Source of the DNA: a virus
Reading direction: 5' to 3' (one strand)
DNA: 38,031 nucleotides
IMG/VR virus record: IMGVR_UViG_3300014202_000415
The translations under genes and the position numbers were made by a program. Below, piece by piece: positions 2,387 through 37,341 of this stretch. Position 1 is the stretch's first letter. Each line of letters begins with the position of its first letter. Under the pieces are notes generated by a model. That model was given only the letters and a program-made list of their open reading frames with translations. It was not told the DNA's origin and did no database searches.

Positions 2387-2391
2387 GGTTT

Positions 2392-7178: not shown

Positions 7179-7184
7179 TATAAT
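7175..7184 (+). promoter_or_regulatory. Late promoter GTGATATAAT, 7 nt from ATG 7192 (leaderless)
   Basis: TTGACGTGATATAAT-taagtgt-ATGGCA. Confidence 0.65.
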
Positions 7185-7191
7185 TAAGTGT

Positions 7192-16099: not shown

Positions 16100-16564
16100 A
16101 TGACCGACCTGCTCACCATGTTATTTGTTTTTTGGCTTGGGGTAACTAACCCCCATGAGCCACCCGCACAACAACCCAGCATTATTAGTGTTATGAACCG
16201 CGCGCGCAAAGTAAACGGGTTACGCCCGTTAAAAGAAAACGCCCAGCTTAACTTAAGTGCGGGGTACAAAGCCTGCGACATGAGCACGGAAAATTACTTT
16301 AGCCATACGCTGCCTGACGGTACCGCATGGTATTTTTATGTTGCTGCCGCGGGGTATGAGTATGACGCTGTAGGTGAGAACATGGCACGCGACATACCCG
16401 ACCATACCGAGGTGGTGGCACGCCTCTTATTAAGCCCAGGGCATAGGGCCAATATACTTAACCCTCGGTATACAGAGGTTGGGGTAGCAGAGTGTGGCAA
16501 GTATATGGTAACGCACTTTGGCCGCCCGCTAGTAGTCTTTTTTGATGACTTGACAAATAACTAA
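16100..16564 (+). CDS. Secreted or membrane-anchored CAP/SCP (YkwD-like) domain protein
   Basis: N-terminal hydrophobic signal-like segment LLTMLFVFWLGV. CAP pattern NRAR...GLRPL...L..A....C.DM....YFSH....G......GEN.A.......LL.SPGHRANIL...YTEVGVA. Confidence 0.6.
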   Translation: MTDLLTMLFVFWLGVTNPHEPPAQQPSIISVMNRARKVNGLRPLKENAQLNLSAGYKACDMSTENYFSHTLPDGTAWYFYVAAAGYEYDAVGENMARDIPDHTEVVARLLLSPGHRANILNPRYTEVGVAECGKYMVTHFGRPLVVFFDDLTNN

Positions 16565-17055: not shown

Positions 17056-17877
17056 ATGGCAAAAACCAGGACGCAGGCTACAACGCCCGCAGACCCTAAT
17101 ATAGTAGCTATTGAGCGGCTGACCCCTCGGGGGCAGAGCCCGCGCATATACCATGACCTAATAAAAAAGCAGGTGCTTGGTGTTGACAAGTCGGGCTGGG
17201 AGCGCCCGTTTGAGGACTTAATGCTTTTTATGTACGTTGCCAAGCGTACGGGGTTAGACCCGCTTGCACGGCAAATATACGCGGTGTACCGCTGGGATTA
17301 CCGCACGGGTAAAGAGGTTATGACCATACAGGCTGGTATTGACGGCTTGCGGGTTGTAGCACAGCGTACAGGCGAGTACGGCGGCAGTGACGATGCGGTA
17401 TTTGTTGAAAAAGACGACAAACCGCTAAAGGCCACCGTTACCGTATATAAGGTACACAAGCGCACAGGCGAGCGCATGGCAGTAGTAGCCAGTGCTCGGT
17501 ACGGTGAGTACGTACAGGAAAAAGACGGCAAGCCAATGGGTATGTGGGCAAAAATGCCCTTTAACCAGCTTGCTAAATGCGCAGAGGCATTAGCGCTGCG
17601 TAAGGCTTTCCCTAACGTATTAAGTAATGTGTACTCGAGCGACGAAATGGGCCAAGCTGAAAACGGCGGCGTGGAGGCATTACCCCCACCCCCTAAACCA
17701 GCTATGACCGCGACCAATACCAATAAGGCACGGGCAGATAAAAAGGCGGCAGAGGCACCAGAGGTGCCACCTACGCCCCCTGTACCACAGGCTGACAAGC
17801 CAGCGGTAGTAGAGAAGCCCGTCATGGTAGAACAAATAGCTGACCCCGTAGCATTACGGGCAAAGCTAAAGCAGTAA
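17056..17877 (+). CDS. recT: RecT-family single-strand annealing recombinase
   Basis: AAAGGAGG SD. FMYVAKRTGLDPLARQIYAV...IQAGIDGLRVVAQRTGEYGG...WAKMPFNQLAKCAEALALRKAFP matches RecT/Bet hallmark segments. Pro-rich acidic tail. Confidence 0.75.
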   Translation: MAKTRTQATTPADPNIVAIERLTPRGQSPRIYHDLIKKQVLGVDKSGWERPFEDLMLFMYVAKRTGLDPLARQIYAVYRWDYRTGKEVMTIQAGIDGLRVVAQRTGEYGGSDDAVFVEKDDKPLKATVTVYKVHKRTGERMAVVASARYGEYVQEKDGKPMGMWAKMPFNQLAKCAEALALRKAFPNVLSNVYSSDEMGQAENGGVEALPPPPKPAMTATNTNKARADKKAAEAPEVPPTPPVPQADKPAVVEKPVMVEQIADPVALRAKLKQ

Positions 17878-17913
17878 ACGTAATGGCCTGGGGGCGGTGT
17901 AAAAACTGCCCCC

Positions 17914-17942
17914 TTGACATTAACCTAACAATCAACTATACA
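17914..17942 (+). promoter_or_regulatory. Early promoter CCCCTTGACA-17-TATACA with the ACCTAACAAT spacer
   Basis: TTGACATTAACCTAACAATCAACTATACA. Confidence 0.65.
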
Positions 17943-17963
17943 TATAAACAGGAGGAAAAAAAT

Positions 17964-18428
17964 ATGGCACAGGACGCCACAATAAAATTAGACTTGGGTA
18001 ACCTTGAGGCTTTAGTGGCCGAGGCAGACACGATATTTTTAAAGCCAAAGGCAGAGGCAGTATTGCTAAAGCTGCTTGAGGCACAGGCAAAAGTTGAGGA
18101 CGCTATAGACAGGGCCAAGCAAAAATTAGAGGCCGCAGCCCTGGCAGTAAACCCCAATTTTAAAAGCATACGCGGTGACAAAACCAAAGTGTTTTACCGC
18201 CAGTATGGTGAGCGCTATAAGGTAGACGAGGCGCAAATAACCCAGGTACCACCCGAGCTATACGAGAGCCAGGTTAAAACGACCTACAAAGTCATACCCG
18301 AGGCAGTAGAAACGTGGACGCAGGCAAATAAAGGTATGCCCATTGGCATTATAGAGGTAGACCGTAAAAAAAGCCTCACGTTTGCACTCAAAGATAAACC
18401 CGCCAAGGAGGTGACCCATGCAGCCTAA
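17964..18428 (+). CDS. Hypothetical protein located between RecT and the exonuclease
   Basis: 154 aa from ATG 17964 with a CAGGAGGA SD. Confidence 0.65.
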   Translation: MAQDATIKLDLGNLEALVAEADTIFLKPKAEAVLLKLLEAQAKVEDAIDRAKQKLEAAALAVNPNFKSIRGDKTKVFYRQYGERYKVDEAQITQVPPELYESQVKTTYKVIPEAVETWTQANKGMPIGIIEVDRKKSLTFALKDKPAKEVTHAA

Positions 18429-19077
18429 ATTACGCGCGTCATACACGCTACTTGATATGTGGGCCAAAGGCGACTGGCAGGGGGCAATTAACTACTACTT
18501 TAAAATTAAGGCGTTTGTTACCCCAGCCATGGTAGACGGGCGCAATTGGCATACAAAGTGGGAGCATGAGGTTGAGCACACAAAAGCATTGCCCGCTATA
18601 TTTACACCGAAAAAAACATTTAACAACCCACTTACCGAGGTAAAAATAGAGGTAGACCTTGCCCCCTGGTTGCAGGTGGTTGGCAAGTTAGACGTGCTAG
18701 ATGCACCCACGGTAGTTGAGTTTAAAACGGGTAAGCAAGACAGCGAGCACTATACCAGCACCTACCAGCTACCGTTTTATGCCATGATATGCGCATACAA
18801 AGGGGTATACGTTGACCGCGGCGAGATTTACCACTATGACCAATACACCAAAAAAGTAGACATGAGCATAGTGTGGATTACTGACGAGCAACTGGCTAAT
18901 GTTAAAAATTGGCTGGAAACCTTGGGCAGCGAGATACATAATTATTTTGTGACCAACAAGCTGTATGAGAGATACGGTACCTATGTACGGGAAAAAGACG
19001 GCGTGGTAAGATTACAAAAGGTGGCTGGGCTTGATGTTAATACGGAGGGCGCAGCCATTATTGGAGGTGTAGCATGA
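18418..19077 (+). CDS. PD-(D/E)xK (RecB/Cas4-like) exonuclease, partner of RecT
   Basis: GKLDVLD...VVEFKTGK and YQLPFYAMI give a D-x(n)-ExK plus QxxxY pattern. Synteny with recT. Confidence 0.55.
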   Translation: MQPKLRASYTLLDMWAKGDWQGAINYYFKIKAFVTPAMVDGRNWHTKWEHEVEHTKALPAIFTPKKTFNNPLTEVKIEVDLAPWLQVVGKLDVLDAPTVVEFKTGKQDSEHYTSTYQLPFYAMICAYKGVYVDRGEIYHYDQYTKKVDMSIVWITDEQLANVKNWLETLGSEIHNYFVTNKLYERYGTYVREKDGVVRLQKVAGLDVNTEGAAIIGGVA

Positions 19078-21434: not shown

Positions 21435-21725
21435 ATGCGATTGTTACCTGGAAAATACATCGTTATTTGCAAGGACGCTGGCCCCGAGAAGCTAAAGAGC
21501 GGCTTAGAAATGGTGCGCCAAGACAAAAACCAACCCGAGGTAGGCATCGTGTTTGACCTATATAAAGGTAACCCCCCTAAGACAGACGACAAAAACAAAC
21601 TACCATTCCCCCTAAAAAAAGACGACAAAATAGTATACCGAAAGTATAGTGATAATAAGGTGTATATTGGCGGTGTAGCGTACAATTTTATACGGTTTGA
21701 GGATATTATAGGTAAAATTATTTAA
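21435..21725 (+). CDS. groES: GroES-like co-chaperonin (Cpn10)
   Basis: 96 aa, directly upstream of GroEL. Pattern: N-terminal LLPGKYIV strand, a KSGL mobile-loop-like segment, KKDDKIVYRKY, and C-terminal IRFEDIIGKI. Confidence 0.6.
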   Translation: MRLLPGKYIVICKDAGPEKLKSGLEMVRQDKNQPEVGIVFDLYKGNPPKTDDKNKLPFPLKKDDKIVYRKYSDNKVYIGGVAYNFIRFEDIIGKII

Positions 21726-21738
21726 AGGAGGGTTGACC

Positions 21739-23334
21739 ATGAAAAAACTAACATTTAAAAAAGATGCCCGTAAGTCATTAGTTGCAGGGGTGCAAATGAT
21801 GTATGACGCGGTATGCACCACGCTTGGCCCCAAAGGGCGCAACGTGGCTATTGCCCGCCAGTGGGGCTTGCCTATTATTGTGCATGACGGCGTGACCGTG
21901 GCACGAGAGGTTGAGGCAAAAGACGAGTTTACTAACATGGGTATTAACCTCGTGCGCGAGGCGGCACAAAAAACCAATGACGAGGCGGGTGACGGTACAA
22001 CTACCAGCACTTTGCTTGCGTATAACATTGTAAGCCGCGGTATGGCGCTTTTGGAAAAGGGCACCAACCCCATGAGTTTACGCAATGAGATTAACGCTGC
22101 GCTCGACATACTGCGCGCTGAGCTTGCCAAGCTGGCTGTTAAAACTAACAAAAAAGACGATTTGCAGCGGGTGGCATTTATTAGCTCAAGTGATAAAGAG
22201 ATAGGCGACCTGGTAGGCCAGGCGGTGCATGAGGTGGGTTCTGACGGTGTGGTAGCGGTGGAGGAGAACTACGGGCCCGAAACGGAAACTGAGCACACTG
22301 ACGGTTTGCTCATAGATAAAGGCTGGGTTATACCCCACTTTGTGACCAACGTACAGCGTATGGAGGCAGTTATAGAAAACTGCTGGGTTGTGGTTACCGA
22401 CAAAAAGATAACCGCCCAGGTAGAGATTGCCCCACTATTTGAGGTACTGCTTGCTCAAAATAAAAACATACTGCTTATTGGTGACGTAAGCGGCGATGCG
22501 TTGCGCATGGTGGCCCTCAATAAACAGCGCGGCAACGTAAATGCTATTGTGGTTGAAACACCAGGGCACGGCGACAAGCGCCGCGAGTACCTACAGGATA
22601 TTTGCGTAGCCACGGGCGCACAAATTATTAGCGATGAGCTGGGGTTAAAGCTCGAGGATTTGGCCCAGCAGTTTGACCTCAAGGTAGTAGGCAAAGCCAA
22701 ACAGGTAGTGGCAGACAAAAAGAGCACGGTTATTGTAGGCGGTGGTGGTGACAAAAAGGCTATTGCCGAGCACATATCCAACCTCAAAAAACTGCGTGAT
22801 GCAGAGAAAAACCTATACGAGCGCGAGATTTTAGACGAGCGTATAGCTAAACTGAGCGCAGGCGTTACCGTCATTAAGGTAGGGGCTAAAACAGAGCTTG
22901 AGATGCGTGAGCGGTTAGAGCGTGTTAAAGACGCGGTGGGTGCCGCTAAGGCAGCCCTGCAAGAGGGTATAGTGCCAGGGGGCGGCGTAGCCTTTATACG
23001 GCTTGCCCAGGCGCTTGAGGCTCAAAAAGACCTTACCCAAGGTTCACAGCTTATGGTTGATGTGCTCTATGAGCCCGTACGCAAGCTGCTAGACAATGCA
23101 GGCGAGAGCCCAGCAAAAATGGAGGCATTGCTCGAGAAAATACTGGCCGCTGGCGGCAATAAGGGGTACGAGGTTAATAGCGGTAAGCTCGTGGATATGG
23201 TAGAGCAGGGGATTATTGACCCCACCAAGGTACTGCGGTTATCCTTGGAAAACGCTGTATCGGTAGCCACCAGCATACTTACAACCGATGTACTCATTGT
23301 TGACGAGCTGGTAGAGCCTAAAAAAGGTGATTAA
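21739..23334 (+). CDS. groEL: GroEL-like chaperonin (Cpn60) lacking the C-terminal GGM tail
   Basis: 531 aa from ATG 21739 with an AAAGGAGGG SD. Collinear with bacterial GroEL: TLGPKGRNV, DGVTVAREVE, AGDGTTTSTLLA, GVVAVEE, ETPGHGDKRRE, GGGVAFIR, GIIDPTKV. Confidence 0.9.
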   Translation: MKKLTFKKDARKSLVAGVQMMYDAVCTTLGPKGRNVAIARQWGLPIIVHDGVTVAREVEAKDEFTNMGINLVREAAQKTNDEAGDGTTTSTLLAYNIVSRGMALLEKGTNPMSLRNEINAALDILRAELAKLAVKTNKKDDLQRVAFISSSDKEIGDLVGQAVHEVGSDGVVAVEENYGPETETEHTDGLLIDKGWVIPHFVTNVQRMEAVIENCWVVVTDKKITAQVEIAPLFEVLLAQNKNILLIGDVSGDALRMVALNKQRGNVNAIVVETPGHGDKRREYLQDICVATGAQIISDELGLKLEDLAQQFDLKVVGKAKQVVADKKSTVIVGGGGDKKAIAEHISNLKKLRDAEKNLYEREILDERIAKLSAGVTVIKVGAKTELEMRERLERVKDAVGAAKAALQEGIVPGGGVAFIRLAQALEAQKDLTQGSQLMVDVLYEPVRKLLDNAGESPAKMEALLEKILAAGGNKGYEVNSGKLVDMVEQGIIDPTKVLRLSLENAVSVATSILTTDVLIVDELVEPKKGD

Positions 23335-24627: not shown

Positions 24628-26042
24628 CTGACCAAACAAAATACCGTAAACCATTAACCACGTTGCATGAGTGGGAGCGTAACCCGCGCAGTATAACCAA
24701 GCGGGGTTTTGAGCGCCTTATTTACCAGGTTATTAAGCTCGAGCAGTACAAGCCCATTATTGTTAAAACTGACGGTACCGTATTAGGTGGCAATATGCGC
24801 CACAAGGTATACACCCACATTAGCACCATGCCCCTTACTAAGCTGCGTACCCTTATGCAAAAAATACGCAATGCCGAGGTAAGCCTGGCGCAAGCGCAGG
24901 CACTCAAACAAGAAGTGGATAACCCATGGGTAAGCGAGGTGCACCCCAAAAACGACAGCGAGGCGTTAGAGTATGCGCTAAGTGATAATGACGAGGCAGG
25001 GCATACAGACGAGGATTTATTGGCTAATATGCTACCCGACTTTAAACTAGACGACCCAAGTATGTTTGCCGTGCACTTTACCGACCCACTGGCGTTAAAC
25101 GACCTTATACCTAAAGAGGGTGACGGCTCGGGTACTGGCGCTGGGGCATTGGTTGACAAGTTTTTAGTACCCCCGTTTAGCATACTCGACACACGCCAGG
25201 GCTATTGGGCTGACCGTAAAGACGAGTGGCGCAAGCGTGTTGGTGACAAGGGTGAGAGCCGTGACGAGGTATTAAGCGGGCTTGATAGCCTAAATAAGGG
25301 CAATTTTGACAAGGATATACTCACGGTGAGCATTTTAGACCCTGTACTGGCTGAGCTGGCCGTGCGGTGGTTTTGCCCGCCTGGGGGCACCACCTTTGAC
25401 CCGTTTGCTGGCGATACTATATTTGGCTTTGTAAGCGGCACCCTGGGCAACCCATTTACGGGTATAGAGCTGCGCGAGGCACAGGCAAAGCTCAACCAGG
25501 AGCGCGTGGAGGGGCTGCCAGCCACGTATATTTGCGATGACGGCGTAAACGTATCAAAACACCTCAAACCAGATAGCCAGGATTTGCTATTTAGCTGCCC
25601 ACCCTATTTTGACCTCGAGGTATACAGTGACCTGCCAAATGACGCCAGTAACCAAAAAGACTACCAAAGCTACCTAGAGGTATTAGGTAAGGCGTTTGCC
25701 GCCTCATACGACTGCCTCAAGCCTGACCGTTTCGCGGTCATTGTTATTGGTGACATACGCGACAAAAAAACGGGTGCATACCGTGGTATACCCAGCGACA
25801 TAGTGCGCATTATGACCACCACAGGGTTTGTGCTCTATAACGATGCGGTACTGCTTAATGAAACGGGCACGGGGGCTATACGCGCCTCACGGTACTTTAA
25901 CGGCAGCCGTAAGCTCGTTAAGCTGCACCAAAACGTGCTGGTATTTTACAAAGGTGACATAAAAAAGATACCTGAAAACTACCCAAAGCTAGAGCTACCC
26001 CAAGAGGGTGAGCAGACCGAGGAGGTGGCCCATGAAGTTTAA
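24624..26042 (+). CDS. ParB-like N-terminal domain fused to a DNA methyltransferase
   Basis: N-terminus LHEWERNPR...VLGGNMRH (ParB/Srx-like). C-terminus [15 protein letters not shown] (SAM motif I-like) followed by [13 protein letters not shown] ((S/D/N)PPY catalytic-type motif). Confidence 0.75.
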
Positions 26043-26349
26043 CATACAAACACGCACCTACGGCGCAGAGGGTGATTTTAGCAATAATACGCAGGTGTGG
26101 CAGCAACTCTTATACATAGTGAGCAAGGCGGGCCTTACGCCGCTTGCCGTAGCAAAGCACGAGTTTTACCCCAAGGGGTTAAGTGGTGTAGTTATTATTG
26201 GTGAGAGCCACGTAGCCATACACACCTACCCTGAGTATAACCAAGCACTCATAGTGGTAAGTACCTGTGGGTTAGACGCCAGCGGGCACATATTACGTTT
26301 TAGTATGGCGCTGCAAAAAATATGGAAATCTACCGTAGTAAACCAGTAA
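26032..26349 (+). CDS. speD: S-adenosylmethionine decarboxylase (SpeD/AdoMetDC class 1)-like pyruvoyl proenzyme
   Basis: 105 aa from ATG 26032, overlapping the methyltransferase gene by 11 nt. [38 protein letters not shown] parallels B. subtilis SpeD [38 protein letters not shown], including the E-S self-cleavage site. Confidence 0.8.
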
Positions 26350-27229: not shown

Positions 27230-27428
27230 TTGCGCGCGGCATTTACTAACCTCTGCCTCTCCCAAGGGGCGGCGTCCTGGGTATTTGTAGCGTAGTTCCA
27301 AACCCGCAGGTAGGGCGCACTCTCACGCAGCCGCCTGCACCCAGCCTAACCATGGGCGGGGTTACATTGCAAACTCAATACCTTTAAAGCAATTTGGGTT
27401 GCCGTAGCGCTGCCCTTTGGTGTTCTAT
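27230..27428 (+). other. 199-nt GC-rich non-coding gap between the terS region and terL (candidate cos/pac region)
   Basis: No ORF. This is the only sizeable gap inside the packaging module. Confidence 0.35.
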
Positions 27429-29057
27429 ATGGCTATAACCGATTTAGATTTAGAAAAGGGCCAAGCATTTAACGTGCTGGCCTTTGTGTTGCACAACAAA
27501 ATAAAAAACGAAAACGATATGCCCATAGAGTTTAGGCGGCATAGCTTTATGATTGACCCGTACCTGGATAACAGCCCGCAACAGGTAGCGGCAAAGTGCA
27601 GCCAAATTGGGTGGAGCGTTGAGGCAATTATAAAAGCCATACACCTGTGCAAATACTATGACGCAAACGTAATTTATACCCTACCCAGCAAAAGCGTGGT
27701 TAAAGACTTTGTTATACCCAAGGTAAACCCCATTATTGAAAACAACCCCGCACTAAACGCCCTGGTGGGTAGCACTGACAGTACCGCACTCAAACGCATT
27801 GGTAACCGCTTTTTATACTTTAGGGGTAGTTGGGAGCAGACGGCGGCAATTAGCATATCAGGGCATATACTTATGAACGATGAGGTTGACCGCAGCAACC
27901 CTAAAGTGCTCAAGACCTACCGCACCCGTTTAGACGCTGCACGCGATGAGCGGCCCGATTTAGGCTGGGAGATACAGTTTAGTAACCCGAGCATACCAGG
28001 GGCGGGGGTTGATGAGCTGTGGCAAATAAGCGACCAAAAGCACTGGTTTATACGCTGCCCGCACTGTAACCTGCTGCAATACCTGGATTTTCCCGAAAAC
28101 ATAGACTTTGAGCGGCAAATATACATCTGCCGTAAATGCCATAAGCACCTACCTGACGAGGCACGCAGCACGGGTGAGTGGGTATACAAGCGCAAAAGCG
28201 CTATTAGCGGCTATTGGATTAGTCAACTCATGGCACCATGGATACCTGCCAAAAAGATTATTGAGGATAGCCAAGGCGACCAAAGTATATTTTATAACTT
28301 TACCCTGGGCAAACCGTACATAAGTAAGGAAACGAGCGTAACACGTGACATTATTGTAAGCTGCCTGAGCCCTGGCGATAACCCGCGCATTAACAATGCC
28401 ATGGGGGTAGACAACGGCGTAACAAAGCACTACGTAATAGGCAATGTATACGGTATTTTTAAAGTGGGTACTACGACAAGCTGGGATGAGATTGAAGACC
28501 TGCGTAACCGTTACAACGCCAGCATGGTTATTGACGCAAACCCGTACCCAAACACCCCTAAAAAGCTCGCAGAGGCCTACAGGGGCAAGGTGTGGATACA
28601 TTACTATATAGAGGATTTAAAGCGGTTGGGCATTATACGCTGGGGTGAGCACGACAAGCGCGGCGTGGTAGAGGCAGACCGTACCAAGATATTTGACCTG
28701 GTAGTAGCTGAGCTAAACAGCCAGGATATTACGTTTAACCTCACGGCTACCGAGCTTGAGGAGTATATTACGCAGTGGGGGCAAATGTACCGCACGGTGG
28801 AGGAAACCACCAAGGGTATACGCAAAGCCGTGTGGAAGACCATAGAGGGGCGCGCAGACCATTACGCCCATGCTACCGTGTATTGGCGAGTTGCACTGGA
28901 AAAGGCTGCCCTAAGCGGTGGTATTGTCAAGCCGCCACCCGTACGGCGTGAGGGTGACCACCCAGAGGTAGACGCAGAGGGTAACGTACCTGCATTAGAC
29001 ATACGCGAGGTTATACACCGTGCGGCTAAAGGCCGCCGAGATTGGAGGTTGCGATGA
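27429..29057 (+). CDS. terL: Terminase large subunit, GpA-like
   Basis: 542 aa from ATG 27429. KCSQIGWS resembles the lambda gpA P-loop KSARVGYS. ILMNDEVD is a Walker B motif. C-terminal nuclease-sized domain. Confidence 0.8.
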   Translation: MAITDLDLEKGQAFNVLAFVLHNKIKNENDMPIEFRRHSFMIDPYLDNSPQQVAAKCSQIGWSVEAIIKAIHLCKYYDANVIYTLPSKSVVKDFVIPKVNPIIENNPALNALVGSTDSTALKRIGNRFLYFRGSWEQTAAISISGHILMNDEVDRSNPKVLKTYRTRLDAARDERPDLGWEIQFSNPSIPGAGVDELWQISDQKHWFIRCPHCNLLQYLDFPENIDFERQIYICRKCHKHLPDEARSTGEWVYKRKSAISGYWISQLMAPWIPAKKIIEDSQGDQSIFYNFTLGKPYISKETSVTRDIIVSCLSPGDNPRINNAMGVDNGVTKHYVIGNVYGIFKVGTTTSWDEIEDLRNRYNASMVIDANPYPNTPKKLAEAYRGKVWIHYYIEDLKRLGIIRWGEHDKRGVVEADRTKIFDLVVAELNSQDITFNLTATELEEYITQWGQMYRTVEETTKGIRKAVWKTIEGRADHYAHATVYWRVALEKAALSGGIVKPPPVRREGDHPEVDAEGNVPALDIREVIHRAAKGRRDWRLR

Positions 29058-29399: not shown

Positions 29400-31508
29400 A
29401 TGGCAGGTTTTAACGAAACAAACACTTTGGGTGAGGATGAGGCGCGGGTTGGGTTATTGACCCAGGAGGACGCGCTTACCCTCAATATGACCGACCAAGA
29501 CGTAGGCCGCCTTATAAAGGGGCGCATTACCAATAGCGGAAAGTTTTGGGATAAGGAGCTTAACCTCACTAACGTACGCGACAGTAACGAAAAATACTAT
29601 CTCAATAAAGCATTAGACGAGGCCGCCCTATACGAGTACCAGGTGCCATATAAAGATAACCGCATATTTTTGAGCGTGGAAACTATGGTACCTATGGTAA
29701 ACGCCCGTATGGCTATGCCTATTGTGACCGAGGCGCAAGACACGGAGGCATCACGTGAGCTGGCTACTGACCTTGGGTACTCGCTTATGGGGCTGTATGA
29801 CGACCTAAGCCTCAAGCCTAAGTTTAGTATGGTAACCCGCCACTTGGTTATGGGTTTTAGATTGGCGTGTTTAAAGTACAGTTGGGATGCGGGCGGTGGG
29901 TTTTTTGACGAGGAGGGCGAGCCTATGGGTGAGATTGCCGTTAATTGGGTACGGCCCCAGCGCCTCATTATAGACGAGGGAGCAGACGACATTAGTGATG
30001 TACCGCTTATTGCTGAGGTTATAACCAATACGGCTGAGGAGATTATTTTAAAGTACCCCGAGAAGACACAGGAAATATACCGCGAGTTTGGATTTGTTAA
30101 AGGTACACGTAGCCAGTTGGGCAGCAAGCGCAACTACCATGAGGCATGGTTTAGCTATTACGACAAAAAGGGCATAAAGCAAGAGGCTGTAGCCTGGTTG
30201 GTTGGTAATACGCTGCTGGGTAAAATGAAAAACCCGCACTGGAACTATGACGAGTGGGAAACTGACAGTAACGGCGATAAGCACCGCCTCAACTTCTTTA
30301 AACGCCCCCAAAAGCCCTACGTGCTGTTTAACTACATAAACACAGGTAAGTACATACTGGACGATACCAGCTTGACCGAGCAGGCAAGCAACCAACAGGA
30401 CATACTTAATAAGCGTGGGCGGCAAATAGTCGAGAACGCTGACAGCGCCAACAGCGGCACAGTCTATAACAGCGAAATGATAAGCGCCGATGACGTAAGC
30501 AAAATTACGGGTGACCCGAGCGAGCGGGTGGTGGTTAAAGGGCCAGTGGGTAATGCTGCTATGCGGCTGCCAACCAACCTACTGCCCGAGTATGTGCTAC
30601 AGGATAAGTACGATGCACGTAATGAGATTGATAACATTTTTGGTACTCACGCACCTATACGCGGCGAGAAAAGCAAAACAAACACGCTGGGGCAAGAGGT
30701 TATGAGCCAGCGCAGTGACCTTGGCCGCACACAAACGCTTGCTGATGCTATGGAGGGTGGCGGCACACGGCTGTACCAAGGGTTAGTGCAAATGATGAAA
30801 GTATTTTGGGATACGCCACAAAAGGTACAGTACACGGGCGCTGACGGTAAAACCATGTTTTTAGAGTTTAGCCGTAACATGATACAAGACGGGGTAAAGG
30901 TACGGGTTAAAGCGGGTAGCGTGCTGCCTGACGACAAGTTTACTAAGCGGGAGGAAACGCTAAAGGCGCTGGCACTGCTTGACCCATTAAGCATTGCCGA
31001 GGGCTTGAGTAAGCCGAACCCCAAGGAGTTTGCTAAGCGCATGGTGCTGTTTAAAGCATTTTTGCCACGCTATATGACCGAGGTACTGCAAGACGCAGGC
31101 GAGGGGCAGGTAGACGCTGACGCACTCGACCACATTAAGAAGCTCAACTATGGTGAGCTGGTGCAACCAGGTAAAGAGGTTAAAAAAGAACACCTGGCTA
31201 CCCATGAGGTGTTTATAAAAAGCGATGAGTTTAAAGAGTTGACCCCCGAGGTGCGACAGCTACACTTTGCCCATGTACGCATGGAGCTTACTGTTGCTAA
31301 AGAGGCATTAGGTATGGATGGTGGCACTGAGGCACCGCCAGGTGGGCCGTTAGGTGAGGCTACCCCAGGTGGTGAGGGTACGGGTTTACCAGGGCAAGCA
31401 CCGCCAGGTGGTGAGGGTGAGCCAGCAGCCCCAGCACTACCAATGGGCGGGCAGGGTAATTTTGTGCAGGCACTTATGGCTCGGTTAAAGGGCGGTGGGC
31501 AGCAGTAG
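29400..31508 (+). CDS. Portal protein
   Basis: 702-aa ORF just downstream of terL, with portal-typical size. Gly/Pro-rich acidic C-terminal tail. Assignment by position and size. Confidence 0.65.
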   Translation: MAGFNETNTLGEDEARVGLLTQEDALTLNMTDQDVGRLIKGRITNSGKFWDKELNLTNVRDSNEKYYLNKALDEAALYEYQVPYKDNRIFLSVETMVPMVNARMAMPIVTEAQDTEASRELATDLGYSLMGLYDDLSLKPKFSMVTRHLVMGFRLACLKYSWDAGGGFFDEEGEPMGEIAVNWVRPQRLIIDEGADDISDVPLIAEVITNTAEEIILKYPEKTQEIYREFGFVKGTRSQLGSKRNYHEAWFSYYDKKGIKQEAVAWLVGNTLLGKMKNPHWNYDEWETDSNGDKHRLNFFKRPQKPYVLFNYINTGKYILDDTSLTEQASNQQDILNKRGRQIVENADSANSGTVYNSEMISADDVSKITGDPSERVVVKGPVGNAAMRLPTNLLPEYVLQDKYDARNEIDNIFGTHAPIRGEKSKTNTLGQEVMSQRSDLGRTQTLADAMEGGGTRLYQGLVQMMKVFWDTPQKVQYTGADGKTMFLEFSRNMIQDGVKVRVKAGSVLPDDKFTKREETLKALALLDPLSIAEGLSKPNPKEFAKRMVLFKAFLPRYMTEVLQDAGEGQVDADALDHIKKLNYGELVQPGKEVKKEHLATHEVFIKSDEFKELTPEVRQLHFAHVRMELTVAKEALGMDGGTEAPPGGPLGEATPGGEGTGLPGQAPPGGEGEPAAPALPMGGQGNFVQALMARLKGGGQQ

Positions 31509-32076: not shown

Positions 32077-32110
32077 ACGTGCTTAATACAGTATAAATAA
32101 CGAGGCAATA

Positions 32111-32136
32111 AGCCCGCAATTGGCGGGTTTTTTTGT
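32111..32136 (+). terminator. Terminator-like hairpin plus U-tract inside the capsid mRNA leader (conserved element 32100-32136)
   Basis: AGCCCGC-aattg-GCGGGTT followed by TTTTTTG; about 83% identical to 2351-2386. Confidence 0.7.
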
Positions 32137-32162
32137 TCTCAAAAAAGTAAAGGAGTACAAAT

Positions 32163-33230
32163 ATGACATTTACAGACCGCGTTAAGTCAATTACTCAAGA
32201 CGAGATTTTACCCAAAGTTATAGATAACGTCCTCTCAGACAGCTTTGTGCCGTTTAGGTTCCTTAGTAACGGTAAAAAGTGGAATGGCGAAACACTGAAA
32301 CGCCCAATGAAAATTGCCAAAAACACACTTGGTGGCTCATTTAGCGGCCTTGATGTGCACAACACTGGCACAGTTGAAACCCGCGTACTCATTGCATACG
32401 ACCCGAGAGGGTACGAAATCCCCGTTGGGATTAGCGGCATGGAAAAGGCCGTTAATGCAACTGAGGCACGAGTGCTTGAGTTAGTGCGCACTGAGCTTGA
32501 GAGTGCACAACAGGATATGCTTGACGACATTAGTGATATTTTGTACGCAGACGGTACGGGCAACTCAAACAAGGATTTCCTTGGATTTGATGCGCTTGTT
32601 GATGACGGTACCAGTGCAGCCACTATTGGAGGCTTGAGCCGCACAACCTACCCCTCACTTGCTGGGGTACGTACGGCATCGGGTGGCACAATGGATTTGA
32701 CCAAACTTGCAACCCTGGTATCTGGTATCTCGGGTGGCTCTGCCTCAAAGCAGCGCCCAACCATTATATTCTCTAACGAAACCGTTTGGGATTTGTTTGA
32801 GAGTATTTTGAGCCCGACAGTAACGGCAAACTACGAAGCCCTCGGGTACCCGTATGTGAGCCGCTCAAGTAAAGGCACTATCCGCGCAGCCGAGTTAAAG
32901 GGTGGCGCAGGGTTTACCTCACTTGTCTATAAAGGTATCCCATGGGTAGCTGACGAAAAGGCAACTGCACAAACTGTGTGGGCCATAAACGAAAACTACA
33001 TCGACTGGTTCGGGTTGACTGACCCAGACCTCAAGGGCATAGACCTTGGAAGTGACACAATTGACGGGGTGTATGCAGAAGCCCCCTCAAAGAATACAGG
33101 TATGCAGTGGACGGGCTTTATGCGCCCAACCAACCAACACGGTGAAGTTGCCCATATTTACTTGCTCGGTAACCTGGTTACATTCCAGCCGCGCAGGCAC
33201 GGACGACTGACAGGTGTAACAACTGTATAA
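32163..33230 (+). CDS. Major capsid protein (HK97-fold type)
   Basis: 355-aa ORF with its own strong promoter and an AAAGGAG SD. LYADGTGNSNKDFLGFDAL resembles the HK97-family G-loop region. Codon usage is distinct from the rest of the genome. Confidence 0.65.
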   Translation: MTFTDRVKSITQDEILPKVIDNVLSDSFVPFRFLSNGKKWNGETLKRPMKIAKNTLGGSFSGLDVHNTGTVETRVLIAYDPRGYEIPVGISGMEKAVNATEARVLELVRTELESAQQDMLDDISDILYADGTGNSNKDFLGFDALVDDGTSAATIGGLSRTTYPSLAGVRTASGGTMDLTKLATLVSGISGGSASKQRPTIIFSNETVWDLFESILSPTVTANYEALGYPYVSRSSKGTIRAAELKGGAGFTSLVYKGIPWVADEKATAQTVWAINENYIDWFGLTDPDLKGIDLGSDTIDGVYAEAPSKNTGMQWTGFMRPTNQHGEVAHIYLLGNLVTFQPRRHGRLTGVTTV

Positions 33231-33251
33231 AAAAAATAAAAGGAGGAACCT

Positions 33252-33977
33252 ATGTTTAACTTAATAGCGCAAGACATTTTTACAGAGAGCCAGTACCAAC
33301 AGCACGAGCTTGGGCTGCTTGGCACTGACAAATACGGCAATAGATACCGCTACGTGAAAGCGGGCGCCTCTGCATTGGTAACTGGTAACCTCCTACAGGA
33401 GGCAGCCGAAGACACCAATTTTAGAAGCATGGCAGTATACGCCGCGGCAGCCATTGGGGCTGACGAGGTGACGGTTACCCTTGGGGGCACCGCAGTTACC
33501 GCCAACCTCTTTGACGAGGGGCACCTATACGTAGAGAGTGGCACAGGAATTGGGCAACAGTTTATGGTTAAGCGTCATGAGGTTGAAACCTCAACCACGG
33601 GGCAGTGTGTATTTACCCTGGATAGGCCGCTTAAAATTGCACTTGACACGACAAGCCAAGTTACGGTGCGTAAAAACCCGTATAAGGGCGTTATCCAGTA
33701 CCCTGTTACCACGCAGACTGGTGGAGCGGTTGGAGTAGCTCGGTATGCCATGACGGCAAGCTACTTTGGCTGGGTACAGTCGGGTGGAGAGTGTGCAGTA
33801 TTATTTGACACAGGCACCAATACCTCTAACGGGGTAACGGGTATTGCCCCCTCTGCGGCAGTCGCAGGCTCGGTAGCACCTGTACTTGATGCGGTAGGCT
33901 CAATAGTCATAGGATTTACACGAGAAGTGGTATCAGTAGATAGCACCATGGGATTGGCCCATTTAACAATTGACTAA
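33252..33977 (+). CDS. Second abundant head protein (decoration / cement-like)
   Basis: 241-aa ORF with an AAAGGAGGA SD, directly after the capsid gene. Gly/Ala/Thr/Val-rich beta-type sequence. Confidence 0.6.
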   Translation: MFNLIAQDIFTESQYQQHELGLLGTDKYGNRYRYVKAGASALVTGNLLQEAAEDTNFRSMAVYAAAAIGADEVTVTLGGTAVTANLFDEGHLYVESGTGIGQQFMVKRHEVETSTTGQCVFTLDRPLKIALDTTSQVTVRKNPYKGVIQYPVTTQTGGAVGVARYAMTASYFGWVQSGGECAVLFDTGTNTSNGVTGIAPSAAVAGSVAPVLDAVGSIVIGFTREVVSVDSTMGLAHLTID

Positions 33978-34032
33978 TAGTTAAGGCTTATTGACGAGGG
34001 GGTAGCAATACCTATTAAGGATAAGCGCCAGC

Positions 34033-34056
34033 AATGGCCCCTCGTTTGGGGCCATT
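34033..34056 (+). terminator. 9-bp hairpin after the head genes (partial terminator / attenuator)
   Basis: AATGGCCCC-tcgttt-GGGGCCATT. The downstream T-tract is weak (ATTGTATTT). Confidence 0.45.
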
Positions 34057-34080
34057 ATTGTATTTAAAAGGAGGCAGAGT

Positions 34081-34209
34081 ATGGCAAAAGATGCAAAAAA
34101 AGTAGACGCACGCCCACTTTGTAAAAAGTGTGACGGTAAAGGGTTTGACGCAGAGGCAGACCGCCCATGCGCAAGCTGTGACGGCTCGGGTAGGCAGAGT
34201 AAAAAATAA
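34081..34209 (+). CDS. 42-aa DnaJ-type zinc-finger microprotein (two CxxCxGxG repeats; below the ORF-track cutoff)
   Basis: AAAAGGAGG SD 5 nt upstream. Product MAKDAKKVDARPLCKKCDGKGFDAEADRPCASCDGSGRQSKK. CKKCDGKG and CASCDGSG fit the DnaJ cysteine-rich-domain repeat exactly. Confidence 0.65.
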   Translation: MAKDAKKVDARPLCKKCDGKGFDAEADRPCASCDGSGRQSKK

Positions 34210-34233
34210 TGTTAATTTAAAAGGAGGCACAAT

Positions 34234-35211
34234 ATGAAGTTTCGAGATTACCCACAGGGAGCACCACTACGACACGGGCACAAAATATACCCAGAGGATA
34301 TAGCGGGTATGCTTGGCCTGCCGTACGTTGGCAAAGTTATTTACGTTGACCCGAGCGCGGGCAGCGACAGTGCAAATGGTGGCAGAAGCCAAAATAGTGC
34401 ACTTGCTACCTTGGCAGGGGCATACGCAAAAATGACCAGTGGCGCACATGATGTGGTGGTATACGCCCCCTCGGGTGGTACTGGCCGCAGCGCTGAAACT
34501 ACCGCAATTACGTGGGCAAAACGATTTGCGCACGTCATTGGCTCAGCCGCACCGACTGTGCAAGATGCACGGGCTGGGGTGAGCTTTGGCACAGGTGGCT
34601 CACTGGTTATCTCTGAAAACGGTTGTATATTTAAAAACCTTACCTTTAACGGCACGGCTGACATAAACGAGCCAGTAAGCGTTACAGGTGACTACAACGC
34701 GTTCCTTGGGGTAGACTTTAAAGGCTCGCTTAATGCCACCACGGGTGATGATACGGCAATGCGGGCGCTCAACCTTGACGGTGGGCAGGAGAATTATTTT
34801 GGGGGCTGCACGTTTGGCTCTGATACCATTATGCGCAGTGCTGCCAATGCCACGGTTGAGTTTGAGAACGCGGCAAGCCGCAACGTATTTGAGGATTGTC
34901 GGTTTATTGCAGCAATAGACGCGGCAACACCTGTGCACGTATTGTTTACAGGCACCAGTGCAATTGACCGCTGGGTAGAGTTTAAAAATACGTCATTTTA
35001 CTCGTTTAGCGCTAATAACGCTACGGCTATGACGGCGTGTATGAACCTATCGGCTCAAACGGCAACAGGCCATGTACTCGCAACGGGCTTGACGAGCTTA
35101 ATGGGCGGTATTACTGATTGGGAGGCAACAGCTAGTGGACGTATTTATATCCAAGGTTATACGAATACGACCAATGTAATTGGTATCGCCATAAACCCAG
35201 CAGTATCATAA
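34234..35211 (+). CDS. Right-handed beta-helix (pectate-lyase-like) tail spike / depolymerase
   Basis: 325-aa ORF with an AAAGGAGG SD. N-terminus IYVDPSAGSDSANGGRSQNSALATLAGAYAKMTSGAHDVVVY. Repeated ~22-aa N/G/F-rich coils (IFKNLTFNG, FLGVDFKG, VFEDCRFI). Confidence 0.6.
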   Translation: MKFRDYPQGAPLRHGHKIYPEDIAGMLGLPYVGKVIYVDPSAGSDSANGGRSQNSALATLAGAYAKMTSGAHDVVVYAPSGGTGRSAETTAITWAKRFAHVIGSAAPTVQDARAGVSFGTGGSLVISENGCIFKNLTFNGTADINEPVSVTGDYNAFLGVDFKGSLNATTGDDTAMRALNLDGGQENYFGGCTFGSDTIMRSAANATVEFENAASRNVFEDCRFIAAIDAATPVHVLFTGTSAIDRWVEFKNTSFYSFSANNATAMTACMNLSAQTATGHVLATGLTSLMGGITDWEATASGRIYIQGYTNTTNVIGIAINPAVS

Positions 35212-35234
35212 TAGTAACTAGCAGTATTAACCAA

Positions 35235-35257
35235 AAGCCCCCTAACGGGGGCTTTTT
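35235..35257 (+). terminator. Rho-independent terminator
   Basis: AAGCCCCC-taac-GGGGGCTT followed by TTTTGG. Confidence 0.8.
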
Positions 35258-35581
35258 GGTATAGTTTGTTATAGATAAGTCAACACCACTAAAAATTAGG
35301 AAAGTGGCACCAATTTAGCCTCGTGTTTTTCCCACTTTAGGCACGACACCCAAAAAACGGACTTGACAAGATATTTTTACCCCATTGTAAGGCTAACCCA
35401 CCAGCAATTACGTGCGTAGACATTGTAGGTAAATGTTAGGTGTATAATATATATAGAGGGGTTTATGGCTAATAGACGCCTCAAAGCACCTTGACATACT
35501 AGCGAGCAAACCACGCAGACGGGATAGCAACCGACCCGTGCAGGACACTCGCCGCATATAAAAACATTTACAGGAGGTACT

Positions 35582-36043
35582 ATGCAAATAGTATACGATG
35601 ACGGCGGCAGGAAAGCCGCAGGCTATACAGGCACCACTAGCGATTGTGTTACACGGGCAATAGCCATTGCAACACAAAAGCCATACCAGGAGGTGTACGA
35701 TGCGCTTAATGACCTGGGGAAGCAAGAGCGACCCAGGAGCCATTGGGCAGGGTGGCAGCGCGGTATGGTACGCCGCAGCCGCTCAACAGCCCGTACAGGG
35801 GTGCACATTGCTACCATACGCAAGTATATGGCCAGTATAGGGTGGGTGTGGGTGCCCACCATGTTTATAGGCCAAGGTTGCAAAGTGCATTTAACCGCTG
35901 ACGAGTTGCCACCTGGGAGGCTCGTAGTGTCGGTATCAAAGCATGAGGTAGCCGTTATTGACGGTGTTATACATGATTTGTTTGACCCTGCACGCGGCGG
36001 CACACGCTGTGTATATGGGTATTACCGAAAGGGGGCCGTATGA
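35582..36043 (+). CDS. Moron gene 1: 153-aa protein with a possible papain-like Cys/His/Asp arrangement
   Basis: CAGGAGGT SD. GTTSDCVTRAIAIA (candidate nucleophile Cys) and VSKHEVAVIDGVIHDLFDP (candidate His/Asp). The fold assignment is tentative. Confidence 0.6.
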   Translation: MQIVYDDGGRKAAGYTGTTSDCVTRAIAIATQKPYQEVYDALNDLGKQERPRSHWAGWQRGMVRRSRSTARTGVHIATIRKYMASIGWVWVPTMFIGQGCKVHLTADELPPGRLVVSVSKHEVAVIDGVIHDLFDPARGGTRCVYGYYRKGAV

Positions 36044-36228
36044 AAGTCTATATAGTAAACGTGACGGCATACATACCCTACCCTATTAGTAGGGAGTATA
36101 CCGAGCGGGCAACAGAGTTTGGCGCTGCCATATCACGTGCCATACGTAAGTACCGCAGTGACGAGCGTATAAAAGGCCACCATATTGACACCATGCTAAT
36201 CCGCGTGGGCAAGGCGACCATTAAGTAA
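36040..36228 (+). CDS. Moron gene 2: 62-aa hypothetical protein
   Basis: ATGA overlap with gene 1 and followed immediately by a terminator. Confidence 0.55.
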   Translation: MKVYIVNVTAYIPYPISREYTERATEFGAAISRAIRKYRSDERIKGHHIDTMLIRVGKATIK

Positions 36229-36234
36229 CAACTA

Positions 36235-36266
36235 CCCCGCTTGGGAAACCAGGCGGGGTTTTTTGT
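36235..36266 (+). terminator. Rho-independent terminator
   Basis: CCCCGCTTGG-gaaa-CCAGGCGGGG gives a 10-bp stem (one G-U pair), followed by TTTTTTG. Confidence 0.8.
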
Positions 36267-36278
36267 GGCTTACAAAGC

Positions 36279-36288
36279 GTGATATAAT
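36279..36288 (+). promoter_or_regulatory. Late promoter GTGATATAAT, 6 nt from ATG 36295 (leaderless)
   Basis: CGTGATATAAT-aggggt-ATGGCA. Confidence 0.65.
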
Positions 36289-36294
36289 AGGGGT

Positions 36295-37341
36295 ATGGCA
36301 TTGCAATTTGACGGCTCCAATGATTTTATACGCTCTGCTGGTGCTATAGCCTTATGCCCAGCGGCAACTTACAGTATTGAGTTTAAACTAAAGTACCTGT
36401 TTGCCACCTCAAGCGTATCCGAAAAAGGCTACATGGCGTTTGGTGGCGCTTCCCCTACTGACGGTGGCGTAACTACGATATTTTTACAACGGAATGGCGA
36501 AGCCCACCGTATGTATTTTGGTGGCTATACAGACGATAGCGCAAATACAACCATGGTGCAAAACACGTGGTATGATTTTTACCTGGGGCACGATAATACA
36601 AACAACAAGGCGTATTTTGGGTTTAACGGTACGGTACGTGAGGTCACTGATGCACAAAACCATAATACGGCAGCCCAAGTATTTTGGCTTGGCGCTGGCT
36701 ACGCGGCCTATTTTAACGGCATATTTGATGAGGTTCGCGTATCAAATAATATACGGCATACGGCCAATTTTACACCCTCTGAGGTTAGGTATGAGGCAGA
36801 CGCAAATACTATAGCTTTATGGCACATGGACGAGGGCAGCGGTACTTTAGTCGCTGACGCATCGGCAAGTAATTTTGACCTAACCATAGCAGGTGATACC
36901 ACCGCCCCCTCATGGGTATCTGGGTATGCGTTTATAACCAACCAAGCACCAAATACCCCCACAATAAGCAGCCCCACAGCCAGCCAAACGGGGGTAAGCA
37001 TTAACCCGACAGTTACCAGTAGCGCGTTTAGTGACGATGACGTAGGCGACACTCACCAGGCGAGCCAATGGCAGGTGGCAACGGATAGTGGGTTTACGGC
37101 TGTTGTATGGGATAGCGGTACTGATACAACCAATAAAACGAGCACCGTAGTTAATGCAGCAAACGGCACCTTTGCTGGGGCATTAAGCGGTGAAACTACT
37201 TTAGCAAATAGCACCGTATATTATGTGCGCGTGCGACACCAGGATGATAGCAGTGAGTGGTCATCATATAGTACGGGCGTATCATTTACGACTGCTGCCC
37301 TCCCTAGCGGCCTTGGCGGTAAGCTATTGCTGCTTTTGTAG
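36295..37341 (+). CDS. Tail fibre / receptor-binding protein: LamG (concanavalin-like) domain plus an FN3/Ig-like domain
   Basis: LQFDGSNDFI...FNGIFDEVRVSN...LWHMDEG is a LamG signature. The C-terminus PNTPTISSP...THQASQWQVATDSGF...VYYVRVRHQD is an FN3-like repeat. Confidence 0.7.
   Translation: MALQFDGSNDFIRSAGAIALCPAATYSIEFKLKYLFATSSVSEKGYMAFGGASPTDGGVTTIFLQRNGEAHRMYFGGYTDDSANTTMVQNTWYDFYLGHDNTNNKAYFGFNGTVREVTDAQNHNTAAQVFWLGAGYAAYFNGIFDEVRVSNNIRHTANFTPSEVRYEADANTIALWHMDEGSGTLVADASASNFDLTIAGDTTAPSWVSGYAFITNQAPNTPTISSPTASQTGVSINPTVTSSAFSDDDVGDTHQASQWQVATDSGFTAVVWDSGTDTTNKTSTVVNAANGTFAGALSGETTLANSTVYYVRVRHQDDSSEWSSYSTGVSFTTAALPSGLGGKLLLLL

Follow-up and report, generated by a model that had tools for sequence, protein, structure and literature searches.

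Zinc fingers of the DnaJ type bind non-native proteins, as is known for DnaJ and BSD2. In DnaJ, repeats 1 and 2 bind separate zinc ions, as do repeats 3 and 4, whereas in Anti-TRAP the two neighbouring knuckles of one chain share a single zinc ion through four cysteines, with a Cys-to-Cys spacing of 14. Chaperones of phage fibres and spikes are typically small and encoded beside their clients, as for T4 gp57A and gp38 and for lambda Tfa, and phage Mu Com, a small protein with a Cys4 site, activates translation of the gene that lies immediately downstream of its own. The locus considered here belongs to IMG/VR virus record IMGVR_UViG_3300014202_000415, a DNA of 38,031 nucleotides (nt) that was analysed at its full length (hereafter the window) and is essentially a whole, circularly permuted phage genome of ~38 kb. 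It contains a short open reading frame (ORF), termed the micro-ORF, which encodes 42 amino acids (aa) with two CxxCxGxG knuckles and lies directly upstream of the gene for a 325-aa tailspike-like protein. The micro-ORF represents a new form of the DnaJ/Anti-TRAP zinc-knuckle module, one that stands alone and would have a single zinc centre, and its genetic linkage to the spike gene points, tentatively, to a peptide that assists or accompanies the spike.

The micro-ORF, its homologs and its predicted fold

A sequence-only reading of the window had described a 42-aa ORF with a strong Shine-Dalgarno (SD) site and two CxxCxGxG copies, and both features were confirmed, the translation being exactly as claimed (Table 1). 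Six-frame translation of the whole window yields three such motifs, two within the micro-ORF and one spurious and off-frame; shuffled windows hold 0.33 on average, and a pair spaced 4-20 residues apart appears in 0 of 200 shuffles. The third motif, CARCTGWG at 34557, belongs to an alternative-frame ORF of 34 aa (34512-34616, + strand) inside the spike gene and is a chance occurrence; none of the related loci has a CxxCxGxG ORF at that position. The same reading called the micro-ORF unannotated, which holds in that it fell below the 60-aa cut-off of that first stage, but the exact peptide is already in a protein database (P0001) and its homologs have been called as genes in other assemblies. 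The placing between head and tail-spike genes was broadly right, with the capsid and 241-aa genes on the 5′ side and the beta-helix gene on the 3′ side, but ‘decoration protein’ is no more than a putative label for the 241-aa product.

About 100 related loci (numbered with the prefix L) were gathered via the 241-aa protein, the 325-aa protein and a terminase profile, the latter used in place of GroEL or portal, which as single-sequence queries gave 0 and 1 relatives, respectively. In 16 non-identical loci, with ~13 distinct peptides, a two-knuckle micro-ORF stands directly upstream of a homolog of the 325-aa gene; together with database matches and variants elsewhere in the module, the family comprises ~19 distinct sequences of 36-102 aa. 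Identity to the window peptide is only ~30-54%, and the N-terminal tails are free to differ in both length and charge. Across an alignment of 11 homologs the columns M1, C14, C17, G21, C30, C33, G35 and G37 are invariant, and G19 is nearly so. The ratio of non-synonymous to synonymous substitution rates (dN/dS, Nei-Gojobori method, NG86) is 0.05-0.27 in 6 of 7 close pairs, taken from the two subgroups near enough for codon analysis. Together, dN/dS values well below 1 and Cys/Gly invariance across diverged homologs indicate that the peptide is selected, especially in its Cys4/Gly scaffold. This is the conservation test that had been proposed for the micro-ORF, and it came out in its favour: the ORF is kept at the same position in relatives, and synonymous and non-synonymous changes are not equally frequent. 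Judged by conservation, the micro-ORF is thus a real coding gene under selection, with the scaffold as the part selected. A DNA-condensing or basic nucleic-acid-binding role was rejected in view of the near-zero net charge of the window and L008 peptides and the strongly acidic tails of several relatives.

Megablast with 32100-36300 found no DNA-level relative among deposited phages; the closest deposited relatives, detectable at the protein level only, are MW202566 (Manatee Spring) and a TM7 phage, with capsid proteins 36-39% identical, and all close relatives are metagenome assemblies and uncultivated viral contigs. Against deposited phages, tblastn with the peptide gave only motif matches at E>=0.2; those in Vibrio phage douglas and MW202573 lie in larger proteins of early or regulatory regions and were set aside as not comparable. 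A single-sequence search of a database of 5.8 billion proteins matched the peptide only to itself, and an exact-match contig look-up returned no match. A profile search over 1.84 billion representatives retrieved 6,089 proteins at E<=0.001; it is uninformative on stand-alone peptides because the list is dominated by long multi-repeat proteins. One multi-repeat relative, P0010, is located in a cellular gas-vesicle cluster and was discarded as unrelated. By the profile search, the two-knuckle unit recurs very commonly as a repeat module and is of a known kind, of which the micro-ORF is a minimal stand-alone variant.

None of the curated family cut-offs is reached by the peptide. Pfam DnaJ_CXXCXGXG (PF00684) matches it with E=1.5e-4 and 22.4 bits over profile positions 1-28 of 65, below the gathering score of 32.7, as expected for half a domain. 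The NCBIfam DnaJ models give 13-20 bits against cut-offs of 338-619; NCBIfam RtpA (NF058604) gives 16 bits, and up to 26.7 for family members, against 65; Pfam Anti-TRAP (PF15777) gives 11.7 against 32 and BSD2_CRD (PF25436) 12.5 against 27; and TIGR02642 gives 14 against 101.4, by way of the zinc finger only (profile positions 181-209 of 267). Among PHROGs, which have no curated cut-off, phrog_3931 matches with E=1.4e-4 (8.7e-5 for the L005 homolog) over the C-terminal half of its 59-position profile. Q-like PHROGs match at E>=0.03, and the ~150-270-aa full-length architecture of the lambda Q-like family is not that of the micro-ORF.

The nearest entries of the Protein Data Bank (PDB) by sequence are cysteine-rich domains of DNAJA3 (2ctt, E=1.7e-4), Ydj1 (1nlt, 3e-4) and E. 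coli DnaJ (1exk, 5e-3), with Anti-TRAP weaker. An AlphaFold (AF2) model built from 17 family sequences has a predicted local distance difference test score (pLDDT) of ~86 over residues 11-40, with disordered ends. Its top Foldseek matches are Anti-TRAP structures (3ld0 and 2bx9; root-mean-square deviation 1.8-2.0 Å over 30 columns, 33% identity), followed by DnaJA2, lambda Q and the DnaJ cysteine-rich domain; none is statistically significant (E 0.24-0.69 for Anti-TRAP), which is unavoidable with only 42 residues. The repeat of the DnaJ cysteine-rich domain is present twice, and the four-repeat, two-zinc-centre arrangement is absent; the C-terminal oligomerisation helix of Anti-TRAP is likewise absent, only 5 residues following knuckle 2 and the model showing no helix. 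Cys-to-Cys spacing in the family is 14-16, which, like the AF2 model, agrees with the single-chain Cys4 site of Anti-TRAP. Since neighbouring repeats of DnaJ bind different zinc ions and the knuckles of Anti-TRAP share one, a two-knuckle peptide would be expected to follow the Anti-TRAP arrangement. On the strength of the model, the peptide very probably holds one zinc ion through its four cysteines, and the one-zinc domain of Anti-TRAP appears closer to it in structure than BSD2 or DnaJ, both of which have four repeats.

Linkage to the spike gene and turnover of the slot

The partner of the micro-ORF can be described in some detail. Its AF2 model (predicted template modelling score 0.83) is all-beta, with a disordered N-terminal segment of ~30 residues followed by a right-handed parallel beta-helix, and Foldseek matches it in the PDB with probability 1.0 to pectin methylesterase, pectate lyase, GVE2 ORF18, Kp32gp38, CBA120 TSP2 and the Sf6 tailspike. 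Of its 470 homologs, the best 120 share 65-83% identity, and none has a Pfam domain; such identity is unusually high for a receptor-binding protein. An N-terminal motif (...RDY.P..K.G...) is found again in L078, L084 and L004, where the gene at the corresponding genomic position encodes a shorter and otherwise different protein. Virion-attached fibres and spikes usually combine a conserved anchor with swappable distal domains. The designation as tail-spike is thus supported, at the level of predicted fold and modularity, by a beta-helix combined with an N-terminal anchor shared by otherwise different proteins. A PAAR-like spike-tip identity was rejected, as the model is a single-chain right-handed beta-helix and not a triple-stranded spike. 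The database product of the gene is 300 aa, from a later start, and homologs support the 325-aa start at 34234. Many relatives carry the spike gene directly after the capsid gene and before the 241-aa gene.

The linkage of the two genes takes several forms. In 12 of the 16 loci with a zinc peptide upstream, the peptide stop lies 1-2 nt from the spike start codon; in the window itself the spacer is 24 nt and includes a separate SD. In L094 an HNH homing endonuclease splits the 241-aa gene from the micro-ORF, which stays joined to the spike gene (the endonuclease, at 7393-7854, is of the HNH/NUMOD3 type, and the same contig carries at 49-2637 a terminase of 862 aa with weak Hint/intein matches). 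L096 has a different terminase family (Terminase_3) and the same micro-ORF/spike pair. L034 lacks an upstream micro-ORF and has a peptide of the same type 4 nt downstream of the spike gene (4950-5078). Two further zinc-knuckle types occur 0-57 nt downstream of the spike gene, and three loci (L008, L035 and L047) have a zinc micro-ORF on each side of it. Across the ~100 loci, all CxxCxGxG ORFs but two off-frame chance ones fall in the spike module: they adjoin the spike gene or, in loci without a detected spike homolog, stand between the 241-aa gene and an anchor-bearing fibre gene. One of the downstream zinc-knuckle types ends in ...GHIxWGY, and the helix-bearing type has an Anti-TRAP-like architecture. 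Relatives also share a separate family of 68-83-aa ORFs a short way 3′ of the spike gene, several of them starting ...DPYTHxF; no member occurs in the window, and the one that was scanned (L007) has no PHROG match.

Given the coupling, the pair kept in mosaic genomes and the insertion in L094, a role of the peptide as assembly factor for the spike is the leading hypothesis. The sequence-only reading had suggested such a role for the adjacent decoration protein or beta-helix spike; for the spike, strong genetic linkage was found, and an obligate role, or one specific to the beta-helix, is not supported. Several observations weigh against it. The position directly upstream of the spike gene, or slot, holds a zinc peptide in 16 of 50 non-redundant spike-bearing loci, a Cys-free peptide in 11, and no micro-ORF or another small ORF in 23 (classified by regular expression, with two misassignments corrected by eye). 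On a neighbour-joining tree of spike proteins with 46 tips, at least 15 changes of slot state are needed, where shuffled labels give a mean of 20.7 and a minimum of 15, and there are loci with spikes 65-78% identical to that of the window that lack a zinc micro-ORF in the available sequence. With similar spikes free of the peptide and such fast turnover, the spike protein does not require the zinc peptide. The proteins encoded behind the peptide in L078 and L084 have no beta-helix domain, the N-terminal anchor alone being common. The dN/dS values rest on few substitutions, and the remaining pair, with very few changes, gives 0.72. Transfer of function by homology is weak, since no curated family cut-off is reached. 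Finally, the presence of a Cys-free peptide in the slot fits an insertion hot spot as well as a functional replacement.

The L078 and L084 loci also narrow what the peptide could do. Because it precedes fibre genes without a beta-helix there, it is unlikely to be a fold-specific chaperone, and the shared N-terminal anchor is the likelier contact point. The Cys-free peptide (~45-60 aa, ...FYKGYDxKWL..E.DHPDYYLVAEY...) is unrelated to the zinc peptide, has no PHROG match and is equally tightly coupled to the spike gene, with a spacer of -8 to +6 nt. The micro-ORF could plausibly have been gained and lost, as seen among the loci, by way of a 15-nt direct repeat, ATTTAAAAGGAGGCA, which occurs exactly twice in the window, even when up to 2 mismatches are allowed (0.21 expected), with its copies 153 nt (51 codons) apart. 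If the two copies recombined, the micro-ORF would be cut out exactly and the ribosome-binding site of the spike gene left intact.

Leader RNA, chaperonin genes and genome setting

The leader upstream of the micro-ORF contains a structured RNA element. In the window, its outer stem surrounds an inner hairpin and the invariant core, which is UUGACGAG ... AUUAAGGA here and has AUUCAGGA as its second part in relatives. The inner hairpin is optional in the relatives, among which 22 distinct versions of the element were found, one per locus and on the coding strand only. In the outer stem (5-6 base pairs), 51 doubly changed cells are observed against 16.6 +/- 3.3 in shuffles (0 of 500 reach 51), and the covariation score is 0.54 against 0.03-0.13 for slid registers. 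A covariance model scores the window copy at 40.5 bits (E=4e-8) and, among 61 sources, detects the element in 24, each time as a single copy on the coding strand; Rfam gave no match above threshold for the element or anywhere in the window. All copies found by a regular-expression scan are 5′ to the spike gene; those of L053 and L024 come after the zinc micro-ORF and before the spike gene, so that the element belongs to the spike gene and not to the peptide. In most relatives the element is followed by a hairpin and T-run equivalent to that of the window but with different stem sequences, and both element and hairpin are equally present in loci with a Cys-free peptide or no micro-ORF. Two terminator-like hairpins bracket the micro-ORF/spike pair in the window. 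Folding of 34020-34260 gave z = -1.0, with no exceptional structure beyond the hairpin, and the SD of the spike gene is open and strong. Together, RNA element, hairpin and U-run have the layout of a cis-acting attenuator or antiterminator, for which the leader is a candidate, and the invariant core could be a k-turn-like motif with tandem G.A pairs.

The chaperonin genes of the phage had been joined with the micro-ORF into a proposed phage-encoded proteostasis kit, an idea that is not supported. Among terminase-anchored loci with 10-kb flanks, GroEL accompanies a zinc peptide (L077), a Cys-free peptide (L074) and a slot without micro-ORF (L075), and it also occurs in several contigs that end before the slot. 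Since it is present with every slot state, GroEL is a clade-wide feature independent of the zinc peptide. Pfam scans of 37 window ORFs found no J-domain/DnaJ or Hsp70, GroES and GroEL being the only chaperones. The GroEL proteins of L071, L072, L074, L075, L077, L079, L082, L084 and L092 are 44-52% identical to that of the window, and GroES was detected in L072, L074, L082 and L084.

As to the wider setting, virion genes run across the ends of the window. The 370 nt after the spike gene (35212-35581), without a + strand ORF of >=30 aa, contain several promoter-like sequences, with TTGACA-like hexamers and an extended -10-like TGTATAAT around 35441-35449, and are probably an operon boundary. 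A weak, sub-threshold match to a Cas4-like nuclease lies two genes downstream of RecT.

Table 1. Features of the micro-ORF locus, of the rest of the window and of related loci (coordinates refer to the window unless a locus is named)
Feature	Coordinates	Strand	Remarks
Micro-ORF	34081-34209	+	ATG, 42 codons, stop; product MAKDAKKVDARPLCKKCDGKGFDAEADRPCASCDGSGRQSKK
SD of micro-ORF, AAAAGGAGG	34066-34074	+	Ends 6 nt upstream of ATG
Knuckle 1, CKKCDGKG	34120-34143	+	Residues 14-21; Cys/Gly columns invariant in family alignment
Knuckle 2, CASCDGSG	34168-34191	+	Residues 30-37; Cys/Gly columns invariant in family alignment
15-nt direct repeat, copy 1	34062-34076	+	Contains micro-ORF SD
15-nt direct repeat, copy 2	34215-34229	+	SD region of spike gene
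325-aa spike gene	34234-35211	+	Right-handed parallel beta-helix; tailspike-like virion protein
Structured RNA element	33979-34033	+	Between 241-aa gene and hairpin; outer stem ggctta/taagc
Terminator-like GC hairpin, AATGGCCCC-TCGTTT-GGGGCCATT	34033-34056	+	T-rich tail; from terminator scan; between capsid/241-aa genes and micro-ORF
Terminator-like hairpin, CCCCTAACGGGGG	35239-35251	+	T-run; closes micro-ORF/spike unit
241-aa gene	33252-33977		Conserved protein; upstream of micro-ORF
Major capsid protein	32163-33230		phrog_9953, E=3e-46
Portal	29400-31508		
Terminase	27417-29057		
SU10-type adaptor	2383-3297		Among virion genes running across the window's ends
GroES	21435-21725		
GroEL	21733-23334		
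S-adenosylmethionine-decarboxylase-like	26008-26349		
CAP (cysteine-rich secretory) domain	16100-16564		
PNKP-type phosphatase	15562-16098		
RecT, with the Cas4-like nuclease match two genes downstream	17056-19077		
RNA element in relatives	L036 125-167; L054 3800-3853; L003 6876-6918; L053 671-722		~20 more copies
Downstream 51-54-aa zinc-knuckle type	L008 1759-1914; L035 1285-1440; L047 1919-2083		
Downstream 75-95-aa zinc-knuckle type	L090 11801-12028; L066 712-939; L050 5045-5332		C-terminal coiled-coil-like helix
Cys-free slot peptide	L009 3853-3993; L003 ~6966-7205; L051 3824-3961; L048 149-292; L054 3856-4005; L090 10664-10810; L070 7084-7224		
68-83-aa downstream ORF family	L007 5017-5268; L093 4397-4627; L097 6190-6399; L044 1591-1809; L062 3562-3768; L070 8257-8496		

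Possible roles and comparison with known systems

The explanation that is preferred here, though tentatively, is that the peptide, which is small, dispensable and exchangeable, helps or partners the spike or fibre protein. The micro-ORF would be expressed late, downstream of a leaky terminator-like hairpin, in a two-gene unit with the spike or fibre gene, and peptide and spike would be made together, given the spacing of 1-2 nt between stop and start codons in most relatives. The two knuckles would fold onto each other around one zinc ion bound by the four cysteines, an arrangement equivalent to half of a DnaJ cysteine-rich domain, while the tails, charged at the N-terminus and short and basic at the C-terminus, would remain flexible. 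The peptide may then act as a holdase or assembly cofactor, in folding, oligomerisation or attachment, or as a minor bound partner, and its action would not depend on the phage GroES/GroEL.

This picture has to be weighed against a host-directed micro-gene of the ‘moron’ type, whose knuckle would bind or block a host protein, for example a defence or regulatory factor, as Anti-TRAP blocks TRAP, and which would sit beside the spike gene only because the site tolerates insertions. Such a gene is unlikely. The very fast turnover of the slot with unrelated cargo (the Cys-free peptide, other small ORFs or nothing), the homing endonuclease inserted in the same intergenic region of L094 and the exact direct repeat that brackets the micro-ORF like a cassette all agree with it, as do the closest structure, Anti-TRAP, being a protein-protein inhibitor, and the reuse of the two-knuckle module in thousands of unrelated proteins. 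What speaks for the spike instead is the tight translational coupling to a late structural gene, the way the peptide tracks that gene to its other flank (L034) and across a mosaic background (L096), and the clustering of three zinc-knuckle ORF types on it, with none elsewhere in the ~100 loci or the window; moreover, the helix by which Anti-TRAP oligomerises is missing after knuckle 2. A structural micro-subunit, built into the virion with the spike or fibre, for instance as a clamp at the N-terminal anchor and not as a transient chaperone, is less probable again. From coupled translation, peptide and spike should be made in matching amounts, the genes that the peptide accompanies have only the anchor motif in common, and spike identity of 65-83% among the best 120 homologs is as for fixed virion contacts; however, close spikes with the same anchor lack the peptide, which means that the attachment site works without it, and tails varying so widely in length and charge (36-102 aa) are unusual for a fixed contact.

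The leader RNA brings in another candidate role, that of an RNA-binding translational or antitermination regulator of the spike gene, similar to Mu Com or lambda Q and acting on the leader RNA or the terminator. A small Cys4 peptide with Lys-rich tails, a gene placed directly upstream, a conserved structured RNA and a terminator-like hairpin in the same leader, and weak motif-level matches to Q-like PHROGs and lambda Q structures are what such a regulator would call for. It is nevertheless very improbable: the RNA element and hairpin do without the zinc peptide in many loci, the peptide can also sit downstream of the spike gene, its tails are often net acidic (L024, L036, L052, L078 and L084), no Com or Q family appeared in the Pfam scan at E<=1, and the spike start region has no unusual structure to melt. 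That the micro-ORF is a chance ORF, or a leader ORF whose peptide does not matter, is hardly credible. It is very short, missing from many relatives and matched exactly in databases only by itself, but the absence of the motif pair from all shuffles, the Cys/Gly invariance at ~30-54% identity, the low dN/dS and the confident predicted fold leave this explanation effectively refuted by conservation.

A broader proposal extends the preferred reading, that of a spike or fibre helper, to the whole module. The zinc types (36-102 aa upstream, 51-54 aa and helix-bearing 75-95 aa downstream) and the Cys-free peptide would together form an unrecognised class of interchangeable micro-chaperones or attachment cofactors of spikes and fibres, encoded in one unit under an RNA leader (UUGACGAG...AUUCAGGA, with its covarying stem) that gates read-through of the terminator between capsid and spike genes; this is speculative and, taken as a whole, rather doubtful. 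If the peptide does act on the spike or fibre, it would be among the smallest dedicated assembly factors known and a minimal one-zinc DnaJ substrate-binding finger working without J-domain or Hsp70; it would offer a model for client recognition by DnaJ-type fingers, with practical use for soluble phage depolymerases and spikes. The fast swapping of unrelated micro-proteins beside a highly conserved spike gene is a natural experiment on the tuning of virion assembly or host interaction, and the micro-genes of the slot are of the kind that annotation pipelines usually drop. For uncultured phages known only from environmental metagenomes, the locus also adds a candidate cis-regulatory RNA, and the GroES/GroEL of this clade stand as a separate, clade-wide feature.

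Among described systems, the closest in structure is Anti-TRAP (RtpA of Bacillus), likewise a very small protein, in which a short linker joins two adjacent knuckles; the phage peptide is not known to have any link to TRAP. The C-terminal helix of Anti-TRAP, through which trimers and dodecamers form, is absent from the micro-ORF peptide, and the Anti-TRAP gene belongs to the T-box-regulated rtpA operon, in contrast to the phage late operon found here. The cysteine-rich domain of DnaJ/Hsp40 shares the exact CxxCxGxG consensus, present twice, and is a module associated with the binding of non-native proteins; with two repeats where DnaJ has four, the peptide could form at most one zinc centre in place of two, and it has no J-domain, G/F (glycine/phenylalanine) region or C-terminal substrate domains. 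The likening to plant BSD2 in the sequence-only reading holds only in part. BSD2 is also a zinc-finger-only protein without J-domain, proposed to assist the assembly of a specific client, but it has four repeats and two zinc centres, and its profile falls well short of its cut-off on the peptide, which is nearer to Anti-TRAP and whose client is putative.

In phages, small Cys-rich peptides of this sort are already catalogued, as the matches to phrog_3931 and similar PHROGs indicate; phrog_3931 likewise groups Cys-rich phage proteins of ~59 aa, and the match to it is weak and motif-driven. HMO-2011-type marine phages carry a partial DnaJ central domain with two CXXCXGXG motifs inserted in the DNA polymerase (PMC9038755, PMC6918029), which is also a phage-encoded two-repeat motif but an internal domain of a replication enzyme, as opposed to a stand-alone 42-aa product of a structural operon; it was the only case met in the literature, where no precedent was found for stand-alone DnaJ-type fingers in phages or for zinc proteins acting with tailspikes. 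With T4 gp57A and gp38 and lambda Tfa, none of which is a zinc knuckle, there is no relationship of sequence or fold, and the analogy is functional only. It lies in small proteins whose genes adjoin a fibre or spike gene and which are dispensable or exchangeable in some lineages, and it extends to the 75-95-aa downstream variants, whose coiled-coil-like helix is reminiscent of gp57A.

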